Source: Eledone cirrhosa
Taxonomy: Eukaryota
Assembly (NCBI GenBank): GCA_964016885.1
Contig: OZ024743.1
Location: 74,152,001 to 74,216,000 of the forward strand
Length of the DNA: 64,000 nucleotides
Reading direction: 5' to 3'
The notes beneath the pieces are model-generated. The model ran no database searches and was not told where the DNA came from. It saw nothing but the letters and a program-made list of their open reading frames with translations. Shown here piece by piece: positions 14,010 through 52,742 of the stretch (position 1 is its first letter; each line of letters opens with the position of its first letter). The position numbers and the translations under genes were made by a program.

Positions 14010-14048
14010 TGAACAAGTACTTTCATGCTTTCGCAATCTTCAGGTTCA
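14010..14048 (-). ncRNA. Minimal type I hammerhead ribozyme
   Basis: Minus strand TGAAC-CTGAAGA-TTGC-GAAA-GCAT-GAAA-GTAC-TT-GTTCA: 5-bp stem I, GNRA-capped stem II, palindromic stem III (GTAC), CUU cleavage triplet. Confidence 0.75.
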
Positions 14049-15766
14049 TAATGTGTGGTGACAGTCAAGTTTGCAATTTTCAACTTGTTCAATTAATACT
14101 TAACATTTAATATTCTACCATACTATTTCATTCTAATACCATTATAAATTTTAAAGGATTGTAAATAAAACGAGTAAATCAGACAAAGTTGGAGTTCCTT
14201 TTATTAATATATATATATATATGCAGAACTATATAAAAAAATTAAATACCAACATATATATATATATATATATATATATATATATATATATATATATATA
14301 TATATATATATATATATATATATATATATATAATAGGTCGACGGGACAGCGTGGGTTTATATATATATATATATATATATATATATATATATATATATAT
14401 ATATATATATATATATATATATATATATAGGAAAAGAGTCAGGACCCCGACGGCTGAGCTCCGGCGGTTTCGACAGCTAATTCCTATTCCCCATTCTACT
14501 ACCCTAAGTATCGAGTACTCTGGTGCGTTATGGTCCACCTGGTATCCTACCACACTTTCTTTGTTTTATATATATATATATATATATATGTGTGTGTGTA
14601 TGTGTGTGTGTGTGTGTGTGTGTGTGTGTGTGTGTGTGTGCCGGCTGGTATAGGACCAACATCAACACATACCGTCGGTCCCTTGTATTGGTGGTGTCTA
14701 GCAGAAGCAAGGGGGACACCGTCTATGGATTTCAGGCTTGACTGGCCTTCTTCAGCATAGAGTTACGCCCCTTTATGGTGTGAGATCAAATCTCGCCAAG
14801 GTTCACTTTGCCTTTCATTCTTACGAGGTCGATAAAATAAAGTACCAGTAATGCTGACCTTGTGCCAAAAGTAGAAACAATTATACAAACAAGCCTCATT
14901 TTTATACCCATGTCAGTAGAATGAACTTTTCATTCTTGCTCTTGTGTTGGCATGTAAACAGAACTTCAGACACTAATGTTTCTGGGTATCACCCTCCATC
15001 AGTACAACTCAGATTACGTTTATTGTATTCAGCCATGTAGAGCGAAAATTTTCTTTTTTATTTATCCCTTGTATACAGGAAACTGACTGGCCAGTCTGCT
15101 GATATGGAATTATGGCTGATCAGTGGATCGGCTAATATGCAGATCCGACTGATCAGCCAGTCTGCTAATATGCAAATCAGGCCGATCAGTCACTGTATAT
15201 TTTAGAAAATACCATATATTTTCACTAGCTCTGATATTTGGTAGGTGAACAGTGAGTGATGAAGGTGAAACCCAGAAATATTAGTGTCTGCAGTTCTATT
15301 TACATGCCAACACAAGAGCAAGAATGAAGAGTTCATTCTACTGACATGGCTATAAAAATGAGGCTTCTTTGTATAATTGCAAACAAATCGAATGTTATTA
15401 TTAGTATTCGAAAAACTCAGAGTATATTTATATATATATATATATATATATATATATATATATATATATATACATATATATATATATATGTGTGTGTGTG
15501 TATACATATATATTTGAGCACGTGCGTAAGCATGAGTTTGTGTGTGTGTGTGTGTGTGTGTTATTATAGGTCCGTACGAAGCTAAGAAGAAATGTGTGTA
15601 TATGTGAGTAAAAGAGTGTGTGTGCATGTAAGTACGAAGCTATGAGCAAAAGTATGTTAATATAAGGGTGTGTATCGGCATGTATTAGTAGTAAGAGAAG
15701 CTGCTAATGATCAAGAGAAAGCGATAGGAATCTAGGGGTGTGATATTGGACGGGGTATTAGAGAAA

Positions 15767-16990
15767 TTAGGGAGGTGAGTTGAGTCCAAGAGGGGAATAG
15801 GACCAAAGACGGTGAATCAGACTTTGTTCAGTACTGGTGCGCGAGGCCTGTGATCCATGATCTAAAAGGACACCCAGGACTGAAACATGTAGGGAAGAAT
15901 GACCAGGAGAACAGAAGTGACGGGCGACAGGAGTATCCAAACCGAGTCGTATGTCCCTCAAATGTTCGGCAAATCGGTCCGCCATACGGCGTCCCGTTTC
16001 TCCGATATATAAAGACCCGCAAAGGGAACACCGGAGGGCATAGGCAACGTGGTGGATGTGCAGGTGAGGGAATGGCGGATACGGAAATACCCGTTAGGGC
16101 CTGTAAGAGTGGTGAGGGTGGAAATAAAGGGACAAGTTTTGCAGTGGGAACGGGAACAAGGATGAGACCGTGTGTAGTCGTGGGAGAGGACGAAAAAGAA
16201 CGGCGAACCAGGAGGTCGCGGCGGTTTCGGGCGCGCTTAGAAGCAGTAATGTGTGGGTTTGGAAAAAAGCGAGAAATGTGGGGGTCAGAAGAGAGGATAC
16301 GGAAGGAACGGAGGATATGTCGCCGGAGTGGTAAGGTGATGGGGTGGTAGGTGAGAGGGAAAGAAACACGGGTGTTGGGAGAGCGGGGTTAGGTGAGAGG
16401 GCTGTGGTGCGGTCTGCTTCACGGGAAAGGGTGAGAGCAGCTTGGATCAAGGTGGGGGATATCCACGCTGGATGAAGCAGAAAGCCATGCGAAAGGAATG
16501 GGTTTCGAAATCGTCGTGCTGGGTACAGAGTCGACGAAGATGGACGAATTGAGAATAGGCTATGGAGTGTTTGGTGTGGGTTGGATGGGAGGAGGTGAAG
16601 TCGAGATAAGATTGGAGGTCTGTTGGTTTAATGTAGATGGAAGTAGAGAGGGTGTGGTGAGAGTGATTAATATCTAGAAAAGCATCAGAAGAATCGGAGA
16701 CGGAGGCGGTAAAATTGAGATCAGGATGGAAATATTGGACAAAAGAAAGAAAACAGTCGAGCTGTTCTCGTGATAGAGAGGTGGCGCCGATACAGTCGTC
16801 GATATAACCACCGTATAGCTCAGGAGTCGGTCCAGCGTACAGGGAGAAGATCTGGGCTTCAACGTAGCCAACAAACAAGTTGGCATAGTTTGGACCCATT
16901 CTGGTTCCCATCGCTACCCCAGAGACCTGCTGGTAAAATTAACCCGAAAAAGAAAATCCATTAATGGTAAGAACAAGCTCAGCCGGACGG
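15767..16990 (-). mobile_element. 5'-truncated, frameshifted Penelope-like retroelement (RT + GIY-YIG)
   Basis: GVAMGTRMGPNYANLFVG, YIDDCIG, YIKPTD..SYLDFTSSHP..KHSIAYSQF..LRRLC, RGYP (ORF 16447-16911); YIGETGRRMADRFAEH..PVARHF..LN (ending at 15767). Confidence 0.92.
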
Positions 16991-17298
16991 AGGAGAGAGG
17001 TAGTGCTGGAGTAAAGGGTAGGGCGTATATATATATACACACACACACACACACACACACACACACACACACACACACACACACACACACACATATATAT
17101 ATATATATATATATATATATATATATATATATATATATATATATATATATAATGTTCGAATGTTAATAAGGTTCATTGATTGCTCAATGAATATAATTTT
17201 ACAATAGATTTAAAGCACTCAAAAAGAAAGTTTTCTGGAGTTATTAATATTATTCAAAATATTAATAAATGAAGACGTTCACATAATCAAAATATATG

Positions 17299-17360
17299 TT
17301 TTATTATATATATTTCGGAGGTACTGTGGTGTTTTTTCAGTACGTCCTCATCAGATAAAA
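17299..17360 (-). ncRNA. Type I hammerhead ribozyme
   Basis: Minus strand TTTTAT-CTGATGA-GGACGTACTG-loop-CAGTACCTCC-GAAA-TATATA-TA-ATAAAA: 6-bp stem I, long stem II, palindromic stem III, AUA triplet. Confidence 0.8.
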
Positions 17361-17703
17361 TACATAAATTGATGAACGACATACCCCAACTGTCTTCACT
17401 GAAATTAAACCATCAAGGCAGTTGAGGTATGTCGTATATAATTTATATATATAAATTCTTAAATTTATAAATGTTATTTATAATAAATTGGAGTGAAAGA
17501 CTCTTGTGCGTGTGTTTCTTATTGGGAACATGACCCTCCCAAAGCATAACCATATCGGTTTCAACACACGTTTTCAGATAAAGAATTTTGCTAAACAAAT
17601 TCAGAAACGAAATATATATATATATATATATGTATATATATATATATATATATATATATATATATATATATATATATATATATATATATATATATATATA
17701 TAT

Positions 17704-50999: not shown

Positions 51000-51077
51000 G
51001 TCTCCTGATGATTTGGGATTTCTCGCGATATTCTACTCTGAGTACCGTTATTTTCCTAATGAAACTACAGTAGAGAC
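51000..51077 (+). ncRNA. Type I hammerhead ribozyme
   Basis: GTCTC-CTGATGA-TTTGGGA...TCCTAAT-GAAA-CTACAG-TA-GAGAC; GUA triplet. Confidence 0.78.
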
Positions 51078-51290
51078 ATTAAAGTGAGTTTGCTTTTTCC
51101 ATATTTTATATATATATATATATTAAATGTAATCTGAGATTTTCGAATATCAATACTAATAATCGATTCGTTTGCAATTATGCAAACAGCCTCTTTTAAG
51201 CCATGTCAGTAGAATGAGCCCCTCATTCTTGCTCTTGTGTTGGCATGTAAACAGAACTGTAGACACTAATGTGTATATATATATATATAT

Positions 51291-52546
51291 TAACTCACAG
51301 TTGGGTGCGGATGCATTCATGTATATATGTGTGTGTCCGCATGTATCTGTGTGTTTCTAAATATATTAATAACTCCCTCTGGTCGAGCAATCTTTGAAGT
51401 GTGGGGACAACTGGAAAGCTTCCATTACTCATACTTCTCGCCTTCTTCACTACCTCTTCTACGGCCTCGATATGAATACCCCCTCCGCCTCCGTGGTATT
51501 TTCTTCGTGGTTATAAGAGGCTTAGCTCTGTTTCTCGACCGTTATATCGCGTGACTATCTCCCCCTCCGCCTTTTGGGATTCTTTCTCACGTCGTGTAGA
51601 CGCGTTCTTGAGACTAGTAAAATGAGGTATCCTCTTGATAAGTCGGCAGACCTCGCAAGGACTCTATATCTTTGATATATTGTTTTTGTTTATGCCACGA
51701 AACTACGTAGTCGAGGAATTTAGGAGCAGTTTAGGTATGATACATTTTATTACTAATTATATCTAAATGTTTCTTCTCTCTTCATAATGTATTTTTAACT
51801 CTGATACTGGTTCAGTCTAGTTCAACTGAATTGGTCTGTCCCAGTCATTCATTGAGCAACATCGGTGAAGTTGGCACCCTTAACTCACAGTTGGGTGCGG
51901 ATGCATTCATGTATATATGTGTGTGTCCGCATGTATCTGTGTGTTTCTAAATATATTAATAACTCCCTCTGGTCGAGCAATCTTTGAAGTGTGGGGACAA
52001 CTGGAAAGCTTCCATTACTCATACTTCTCGCCTTCTTCACTACCTCTTCTACGGCCTCGATATGAATACCCCCTCCGCCTCCGTGGTATTTTCTTCGTGG
52101 TTATAAGAGGCTTAGCTCTGTTTCTCGACCGTTATATCGCGTGACTATCTCCCCCTCCGCCTTTTGGGATTCTTTCTCACGTCGTGTAGACGCGTTCTTG
52201 AGACTAGTAAAATGAGGTATCCTCTTGATAAGTCGGCAGACCTCGCAAGGACTCTATATCTTTGATATATTGTTTTTGTTTATGCCACGAAACTACGTAG
52301 TCGAGGAATTTAGGAGCAGTTTAGGTATGATACATTTTATTACTAATTATATCTAAATGTTTCTTCTCTCTTCATAATGTATTTTTAACTCTGATACTGG
52401 TTCAGTCTAGTTCAACTGAATTGGTCTGTCCCAGTCATTCATTGAGCAACATCGGTGAAGTTGGCACCCTTAACTCACAGTTGGGTGCGGATGCATTCAT
52501 GTATATATGTGTGTGTCCGCATGTATCTGTGTGTTTCTAAATATAT
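51291..52546 (+). mobile_element. 590-bp tandem repeat (two full copies plus ~75 bp) with a variant HHR per full unit
   Basis: TAACTCACAGTTGGGTGCGG at 51291, 51881 and 52471; copies look identical; flanked by TA-rich tracts. Confidence 0.88.
51630..51717 (+). ncRNA. Type I hammerhead ribozyme, U3-A8 core variant (second copy 52220-52307)
   Basis: TCCTC-TTGATAA-GTCGGCA...TGCCAC-GAAA-CTACGTAG-TC-GAGGA; GUC triplet, palindromic stem III. Confidence 0.72.
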
Positions 52547-52687
52547 ATATGTGTGTGTGTGTGTGTGTGTGTGTGTGTGTATACATATATATATAAAACA
52601 AAATAAAATATATCGATATATCGATGTATTGACAGAGTGAAACACACTTCTACAACATGTGTACTTGTCTTTTCCACACCAATTCGG

Positions 52688-52742
52688 ACTACCTGAAGAG
52701 TTCACAGCCAATAATAGCTGTCACCGAAATATATATAGCAGT
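52688..52742 (+). ncRNA. Type I hammerhead ribozyme (paralogue of 18872-18926)
   Basis: ACTAC-CTGAAGA-GTTCACAGCCA-ATAA-TAGCTGTCACC-GAAA-TATATA-TA-GCAGT; downstream ~150 bp also homologous. Confidence 0.65.

Follow-up and report, generated by a model that had tools for sequence, protein, structure and literature searches.

Why should one stretch of a cephalopod genome hold some twenty hammerhead ribozyme motifs? The stretch in question, here called the window, comprises positions 74152001-74216000 (64,000 nucleotides) of contig OZ024743.1 of Eledone cirrhosa (GCA_964016885.1). It is AT-rich and filled with microsatellites, and the genome measures 3.0 Gb in 1,796 contigs. The answer that we consider probable is that the motifs are type I hammerheads left by retrotransposition. 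Some are ends of coding Penelope-like elements (PLEs), and others belong to non-coding retrozymes, for whose insertion the same Penelope enzymes are likely responsible, probably via rolling-circle copying of a small RNA circle.

A first-pass annotation had listed about 20 hammerheads with intact cores, and all 20 sites are present, offset by at most ~10 nt. At each of them the core letters CUGANGA, GAAA and UH are kept in type I order, with UUGAUAA replacing CUGANGA at 51635 and 52225. Our type I scan is defined by the core, a helix I of at least 4 bp, a helix II of at least 3 bp and a helix III that is short or paired; its relaxed version tolerates one mismatch or bulge in helix II. The relaxed scan yields 22 matches, namely 19 of the 20 listed motifs and three that had been overlooked, at 21181 and 23238 on the minus strand and 30203 on the plus strand. 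The remaining listed motif, at 52693, keeps all core letters and fails solely through an A.C mismatch adjoining the core in helix I. As a control for chance, 200 dinucleotide shuffles were made per segment between microsatellites. Between 13.0 and 53.7 kb there are 19 matches, compared with 0.41 +/- 0.58 (maximum 2) in shuffled DNA, and for C3-G8 cores alone 19 matches compared with 0.085 (maximum 2).

The predicted structure is also reflected in covariation, assessed in 42 distinct copies of the largest family (F1) that were collected with a pattern leaving helix II free; kinship inflates such counts. Nine of the ten helix II pairs have changed on both sides, and 95.1% of cells pair, compared with 84.7% after shuffling (a level reached in 0/500 shuffles) and 34-60% in slid structures. 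Two of the five measures are not above shuffles (41/500 and 416/500). Compensatory change is found in the F1 helix III palindrome too, as AU/GC and UA/CG swaps. Perfect palindromes make up five of the eight helix III inserts; these pair in duplex form and not as hairpins, as expected for dimer action, and families F14 and F16 (3 motifs) have a long helix III rather than a short palindrome. By core and helices the motifs are minimal type I hammerheads of the PLE type, and self-cleavage is predicted. They resemble the minimal hammerheads described for PLEs (PMC4209133), which likewise form many families per genome and have a short palindromic helix III and a U3-A8 variant. In contrast to those, helix II is often long here (10-15 bp) with a conserved pyrimidine mismatch. 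An Rfam scan of the window at gathering thresholds gave 0 matches; at E values up to 10, there was no hammerhead among the matches listed (150 of 248), and the listed ones were microsatellite-driven.

The 20 motifs reduce to 13 insertions, because six of them form one array and two pairs are dimers. Flank clustering assigns the insertions to eight families, rather than the roughly 10 unrelated families proposed earlier, although 10-11 are obtained if the subfamilies of the largest one are split. Eight of the 20 motifs lie in 5'-truncated 3' ends, or pseudo-long terminal repeats (pLTRs), of coding PLE families; four families of non-coding tandem retrozymes account for 11; and one (51005) is unassigned. 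The first-pass annotation had also proposed a large, diverse population of non-autonomous PLE derivatives. Both the link to PLEs and the size and diversity of the population across the genome are supported, whereas the term non-autonomous fits only the 11 tandem motifs. Bounding by (TA)n, as described in the first-pass annotation, applies to the 3' side: (TA)n occurs within 300 nt downstream of 73/92 motifs, whereas it is found upstream of only 37/95, and at 30% of random positions. As with the PLE hammerheads in PMC4209133, most copies are single and truncated, opposite-strand pairs lie 100-700 bp apart, and a few copies flank full open reading frames (ORFs).

Those few copies uphold the expected link between type I hammerheads and PLEs, since their coding ORFs lie between two hammerhead-bearing pLTRs. 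Locus L197 has an 808-aa Hydra-type ORF (P0002) between two F1 hammerheads 3.7 kb apart, and L219 has a broken reverse transcriptase (RT)-endonuclease (EN) frame between two F9 hammerheads 4.1 kb apart. At L123, a 1239-aa frame is flanked by two F2 hammerhead pLTRs. Two ORFs, of 476 and 775 aa, occur at L214 and L216 together with F41 hammerheads, and the ORFs of L214 lie between two of these hammerheads. Window copies are 76-98% like the pLTRs of coding loci. Families F1, F2, F9 and F41 are, on these sequence features, pLTRs of EN+ Penelope-like elements whose ORF is predicted to encode RT plus a GIY-YIG-type domain at the C terminus. At L216:1009-9345, two near-identical full copies of a two-ORF PLE lie head-to-head; their reading frames, ORF1 (476 aa) and ORF2 (775 aa), overlap as they would in a frameshift.

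Motifs read by eye in the P0002 and L219 frames (DKT, a CxCX5C linker, and CxxC and CxH instead of CCHH) would place F1 and F9 in the Hydra clade; the RWK motif is exact in L219 and reads RWI in P0002. Hydra-clade C-terminal EN+ PLEs (PMC8557442) share the RW-type motif, DKT, CxCX5C, and CxxC/CxH around conserved E and N, as well as hammerheads and insertion in (TA)n. They are generally <3 kb, whereas the elements here measure 3.7 kb (L197) and 4.1 kb (L219) between hammerheads, or 3.7-4.1 kb from pLTR to pLTR. Hydra-type elements, a clade assigned here by motifs, are the dominant hammerhead source, with 64,531 pattern matches. F2 and F41 have the CX4CxxC linker of Neptune or Nematis (CX2-5CxxC in general). 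The linker and CCHH endonuclease motifs, read by eye in P0001 and L216 ORF2, fit either clade alike. Among the Atlas neighbours of P0002, some members have GIY-YIG or RVT_1. Three decayed PLE RT/GIY-YIG fragments had been reported in the window; two were found, at 15767-16995 and 21385-22616. No third PLE coding fragment was detected at nine suspect regions of the window, and the RT at 47228-47818 matches Pfam RVT_1 but no PLE query. A first look with the protein of the 21011..22616 element gave 13,998 genome candidates.

The four non-coding families have tandem periods of 310 (F3), 590-591 (F8), 539 (F14) and ~620 bp (F16; 619), each with one type I hammerhead per unit. Their longest stop-free frames are 59, 86, 50 and 95 aa, respectively. 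Folded as circles, the 310-nt monomer reaches -67.8 kcal/mol (z -4.5) and the 590-nt monomer a z of -5.7 relative to shuffles; the rearranged 284-bp piece of F16 has a z of -0.8. In the 590-bp family the U3-A8 core is normal (UUGAUAA in 99/100 among the matches listed). The 310-bp units are 98-100% alike in >8,000 copies. With tandem organization, one predicted type I hammerhead per unit and no protein coding, the arrays fit animal non-LTR retrozymes (PMC7229834; 10.64898/2026.07.22.740005). Those are also non-coding AT-rich tandems with one type I hammerhead per unit; their monomers are self-paired, a feature matched here by the 310- and 590-nt circle folds. They coexist with PLEs, and movement via RNA circles and PLE enzymes has been proposed for them. 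Three of the four units here (539-619 bp) exceed the 150-450 bp of PMC7229834 and are within the 51-972 bp of 10.64898/2026.07.22.740005. Dispersed, young, two-armed, head-to-head arrays with PLE-type tails are not among the retrozyme features described in the consulted passages of these two sources, and the literature searched yielded no account of two-armed, variant-uniform retrozyme arrays. Two of four contig-level runs of unspecified kind contain a 340-nt contig (one 310 unit plus the word overlap), which is expected of tandem DNA and a circle alike; no empty-site join was found in those four runs. For window 26900-27400, runs under four organism labels contain 90-100% of the words of the 310-bp unit; the labels may represent one species, relatives or mixed samples.

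How these arrays probably arrived is recorded in their ends. We compared 23 arrays of the 310-bp family: 10 from a first listing, 11 of 12 from a second, one from a spaced locus, and the window's own. Two arms are present in 20 of the 23, and all 20 are head-to-head, each with one short and one long 3' end, both of which enter (TA)n or a similar AT-rich tract. The short end lies at alignment phase 135-139 (junction near 130) and the long end at 154-170. Arms contain 0.3-14 units, with 5' break phases that are scattered and never at the cut site, and whole insertions reach 17-19 units. Most centres show an overlap of 1-6 nt, and some have short inserts. In the 590-bp family the ends are at phases 80 and 244-250 in 14/14 loci, ten of which were chosen for showing both strands, and in the 539-bp family at phases 178 and 266. 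Paired short and long ends also occur in coding families: 18/24 pairs of F1 (~45-55 and 131-148 nt past the cut), 5/6 of F9 and 4/6 of F41. Non-coding arrays and coding PLEs share an insertion mark, consisting of two fixed, family-specific ends in (TA)n. At unselected loci, neighbouring opposite-strand motifs are head-to-head in 13 cases and tail-to-tail in 7, a crude count that is weak alone; the 7 tail-to-tail pairs appear to be adjacent separate insertions.

Variants within the arrays bear on the template. Fixed variants are identical between arms in 19/19 comparable 310-bp insertions, compared with 16% of 361 cross-insertion pairs. Five insertion-private variants are present in all units of the two arms, and none of about a dozen variants confined to single units was found again in another 310-bp array. 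In the 590-bp family, arm distance is 0.007 within and 0.041 between insertions. The presence of the same monomer variant in both arms suggests rolling-circle reverse transcription of one RNA circle. Moreover, insertion-private variants fixed in all units point to a monomer bottleneck, which favours a circle over a linear multimer but is not proof of one.

The enzymatic steps that we infer are as follows. A PLE RT-endonuclease would nick both strands of a (TA)n site, and each nick would prime complementary DNA (cDNA) synthesis at one of two internal start sites on a circular RNA. The RT would then circle the template several times and halt at variable points, after which the two cDNAs would be joined at their far ends through 1-6 nt overlaps. 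The majority of copies in the genome are probably silent or dead. The scheme has precedents. PAc, a Poseidon PLE of the lizard Anolis carolinensis, encodes a protein that, when purified, nicks and extends both strands of AT-rich DNA, and two internal RNA start sites for its RT give rise to the tail (PMC11167929). Inverted copies and tails of PLEs have been described (PMC8557442). In coral, mussel and axolotl, retrozyme RNA is expressed in the form of monomer circles, and in vitro the monomers from axolotl and mussel are closed by RtcB (PMC7229834).

Might the tandem families instead have multiplied as DNA? Under this alternative, all families, tandem ones included, are debris of coding-PLE pLTRs that was later amplified locally by unequal crossover or gene conversion, as proposed for vertebrate retrozymes. 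Coding-PLE ends do make up 70% of the counted motifs, and 24/57 Xenopus retrozyme families are homologous to known transposable elements, nearly all of them PLEs, with local amplification invoked (10.64898/2026.07.22.740005). In each array here, however, the PLE-type ends in (TA)n are fresh and fall at the same two phases of the unit, the two inverted arms are each multimeric and have a single variant set in common, and the four tandem units have neither an ORF nor a clear pLTR match. We therefore regard amplification of debris as quite improbable.

A second alternative retains the PLE enzymes and dispenses with the circle. Arrays could be inserted from linear multimeric transcripts of uniform source arrays, or by template jumps between identical linear monomers, with the hammerheads as mere passengers. 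PLE insertion in vitro needs no hammerhead cleavage (PMC11167929), no array ends at the cut site (0 cases), and many identical 310-bp arrays at different places of C1 indicate that uniform sources exist. Against a linear template, the five insertion-private variants occur in every unit while single-unit variants do not recur, pointing to the monomer bottleneck. In addition, 5' truncation alone would shorten arrays in each round, yet insertions of 17-19 units occur, and helices II and III covary, which indicates selection on the fold in at least the coding family examined (F1). Insertion from linear templates thus seems unlikely, though less so than amplification of debris.

Several observations weigh against retrotransposition by Penelope enzymes from a small RNA circle. 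The transcript of an already uniform array would equally yield uniform daughters. The lizard PLE hammerhead is dispensable for insertion in vitro and cut only with protein present (PMC11167929), and 8/9 Xenopus retrozyme dimers did not cut, while 1/9 did (10.64898/2026.07.22.740005). When motifs from the window were folded singly, both helix I and helix II formed in 6/17 and a clean three-way junction in 0/17, with mostly non-native folds; PLE-type hammerheads cut poorly as single copies (PMC4209133). Tails vary by family (~30-35, 55, 60, 70, 90, 95 and 165 nt, in non-coding units as well), compared with the 30-40 bp printed for PAc (PMC11167929). Comparison of the four non-coding units with seven coding PLE loci gave no convincing match (best E 0.005-0.03). 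A Pfam search of P0001 and P0002 returned no RT or GIY-YIG family match, and PLE identity is based on motifs read by eye, tblastn among this genome's own loci and Atlas neighbours.

One further family, Z, combines a hammerhead with a tail in ~200 nt, beginning ~12 nt ahead of the core, and most copies are cut inside helix II. In the window it occurs at 7156, 14430-14570, 24062-24108, 30843-31036 and 33990-34180. The spaced sample of 59 loci described below contains 19 distinct 3' halves, and full cores are present in L095 (U3-A8) and L240-L242 (C3-G8); the C3-G8 pattern has 3 genome copies. Pieces of Z are joined into the centres of 310-bp or F1 insertions (L110:1529-1584; window 31785-32130; L044:1994), which suggests template switching between RNAs of different families during one insertion.

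The window is not exceptional in kind. Genome-wide counts were obtained as family-pattern matches in which both core boxes, but not every helix, are fixed, and the reversed control of each pattern gave 0. Eleven family patterns have 120,165 matches, or 40 per Mb. The coding families account for 84,673 of these (F1, 54,515; F2, 13,925; F9, 10,016; F41, 6,217), and the others are F4 (19,536), the 590-bp family (6,637), the 310-bp family (4,225 + 3,915), F14 (848), F16 (329) and F40 (2). A strict scan of 59 evenly spaced 10-kb loci on C1-C15 gave 62 matches, compared with 1.2 in shuffles, or 103 per Mb (bootstrap 64-147). This density extrapolates to 1.9-4.4 x 10^5 motifs in the genome, ~3x10^5, a rough estimate given that the loci were placed by hand and the counts are clumped. 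The 200 kb flanking the window contains only 10 motifs. Relative to the sample, the window is enriched 3-fold as a whole and 4.5-fold over 41 kb, in part through one array and in a window that was picked for this trait. It stands out as a richer patch against a background of ~100 motifs per Mb across the genome.

For comparison, PLE minimal hammerheads number ~2,000 + 1,300 in Schistosoma mansoni, 4,000 in coelacanth and 9,000 in Xenopus tropicalis (PMC4209133), compared with 84,673 in four coding families here, under descriptors that differ. The largest printed count that we found is that of axolotl, with 126,247 motifs in 28 Gb, compared with at least 120,165 in 3.0 Gb here; again under other descriptors, the density here (at least 40, and ~100 per Mb) is 9-20 times that of axolotl. 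In the literature searched, we found no cephalopod hammerhead density beyond 235 Rfam matches in giant squid (PMC6962438), and the search returned no copy number for schistosome Sm-alpha. It is possible, and we propose only tentatively, that this genome is among the most hammerhead-dense known and that its young arrays record the step so far absent from the retrozyme cycle, namely one RNA circle copied round from both nicked (TA)n strands by a Penelope enzyme, with a family-specific start-site spacing of 30-165 nt.

Could so many motifs instead serve the host? They might be kept to cut pre-mRNA or to regulate genes of the region. Two-armed insertions give each strand a hammerhead, such that any intronic copy would include a sense motif, and the window is 3-4.5 times richer than sampled loci. 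However, no host exon was found in 264 kb: the search of the window and its 200 kb flanks detected none in 127/162 non-repeat frames of at least 75 aa, although short exons would be missed, and the frame scan gave only RT-type matches, one helix-turn-helix match and two weak chance-like matches. Strand counts are near 50:50 for most patterns, six of the 20 motifs come from one array, and several copies have private helix-breaking changes. The arms of a two-armed insertion would also pair together, presumably burying the motif. Frequent cutting of pre-mRNA by these motifs seems unlikely, because PLE-type hammerheads cut weakly alone (PMC4209133) and because of this pairing, and we consider a host function very improbable. 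The features of the window are collected in the following table.

Features of the window; positions count from its first nucleotide, and percentages are sequence identity or likeness to the locus named
Feature	Position	Strand	Details
Fold-back 3' end of two-ORF, putatively Neptune-type PLE (F41)	13841..14255	-	Hammerhead 14005-14053, core 14043, predicted cut after 14015 (CUU); 93% over 213 nt to L214 pLTR
Decayed Neptune-like PLE RT/thumb/GIY-YIG fragment	15767..16995	-	Pfam GIY-YIG E=0.0037, below curated cut-off; 35% to L216 ORF2 RT; no hammerhead found behind it
F1 hammerhead (Hydra-type PLE pLTR)	17295..17364	-	Core 17354; 76% over 233 nt to L186
Truncated 3' end of Hydra-type PLE (F9)	18609..19093	+	Hammerhead 18867-18931; 98% over 472 nt to L219 pLTR
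5'-truncated coding PLE (RT thumb, endonuclease, 3' pLTR; F2)	21011..22616	-	Hammerhead 21137-21191, U3 against G8, likely decayed; 86% to full-length L123
Extra hammerhead, family F4	23190..23248	-	Scan and flank clustering
Two-armed 310-bp retrozyme array in (TA)n	25660..27830	both	Six hammerheads (25829, 26139, 26449 on -; 27015, 27325, 27635 on +), GUA site, CGCG loop; 3.4 units in minus arm (25660-26711) with the short 3' end, 3.6 units in plus arm (26707-27830) with the long one, central overlap 5 nt
Extra hammerhead, family F4	30193..30251	+	Between two (TA)n runs
Fold-back of short family Z element	30843..31036	.	3' half of hammerhead only; other halves at 7156, 14471, 34032
F1 PLE end	31073..31240	+	Hammerhead 31137-31205; pLTRs of L196, a coding locus, match at 89% over 171 nt
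F1 PLE end, short inverted arm (fold-back)	31785..32041	-	Hammerhead 31823-31891; 86% to L189, a coding locus
Older rearranged partial tandem of 619-bp non-coding F16	32277..32825	-	Hammerheads 32432-32520 and 32716-32804, 284 bp apart
Diverged partial copy of 539-bp non-coding tandem F14	39647..40011	+	Hammerhead 39708-39793; F14 array of 4.4 units at L198
F1 PLE end, UGCGCA-loop subfamily	42015..42180	+	Hammerhead 42075-42149; 96% over 166 nt to L197 pLTR
Two-armed F1 insertion	42203..44130	both	Short-ended minus arm from 42203, G8 of its core changed to A; long-ended plus arm to 44130 with hammerhead 43932-44000; 98% likeness between arms over 278 nt; ends lie 49 and 138 nt beyond predicted cut
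Hammerhead of rare family F40	50995..51082	+	2 genome pattern matches; no PLE match
One-armed 590-bp retrozyme array	51290..52546	+	2.1 units with U3-A8 core, GUC site and CUACGUAG palindrome; two hammerheads, at 51625-51722 and 52215-52312
Diverged F9 Hydra-type PLE end	52644..52890	+	Hammerhead 52683-52747 with helix I mismatch; 78% over 254 nt to L219

Relics of decayed hammerheads, with a core box changed or a helix broken, lie at 22889 (plus strand) and at 29268, 33028, 39364, 14755 and 42315 (minus strand); more intact relatives of relics 22889, 39364 and 14755 are present in L054, L083 and L038. Further fold-back insertions by (TA)n lack a scan-positive hammerhead (45634-46387, 44511-44851, 45456-45610, 32943-33842 and 14878-15379). 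These resemble miniature inverted-repeat transposable elements but may instead be PLE-type ends with two arms. RT fragments of non-LTR retrotransposons are located at 47228-48040 and 29380-30100 (Pfam RVT_1 E=2e-9), the former in two inverted pieces; both are presumably of the RTE type. Decayed, GC-rich tandem repeats of 173 bp and 255 bp occupy 36900-38720, with frames that have no Pfam match, and a 21-bp satellite of >450 copies with extreme strand skew extends over 54591-64000. The commonest short repeat of the genome appears to resemble an octopod short interspersed nuclear element.

These are new families of known kinds, notable for their scale and for their clear mechanistic record. Because Rfam misses 20/20 motifs of the window, standard annotation would overlook possibly several hundred thousand motifs. 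Where transcribed, the near-perfect fold-backs could supply much double-stranded RNA. In the literature, the way in which retrozymes reach new sites is so far hypothetical (PMC7229834; 10.64898/2026.07.22.740005). Here, young families with a PLE insertion mark and a monomer bottleneck occur together with open-frame PLE proteins in one genome, which makes the model directly testable. If it is true, the proposal that PLEs mobilise retrozyme circles would become a defined reaction, one whose templates and start sites are named and for which intact candidate enzymes exist.

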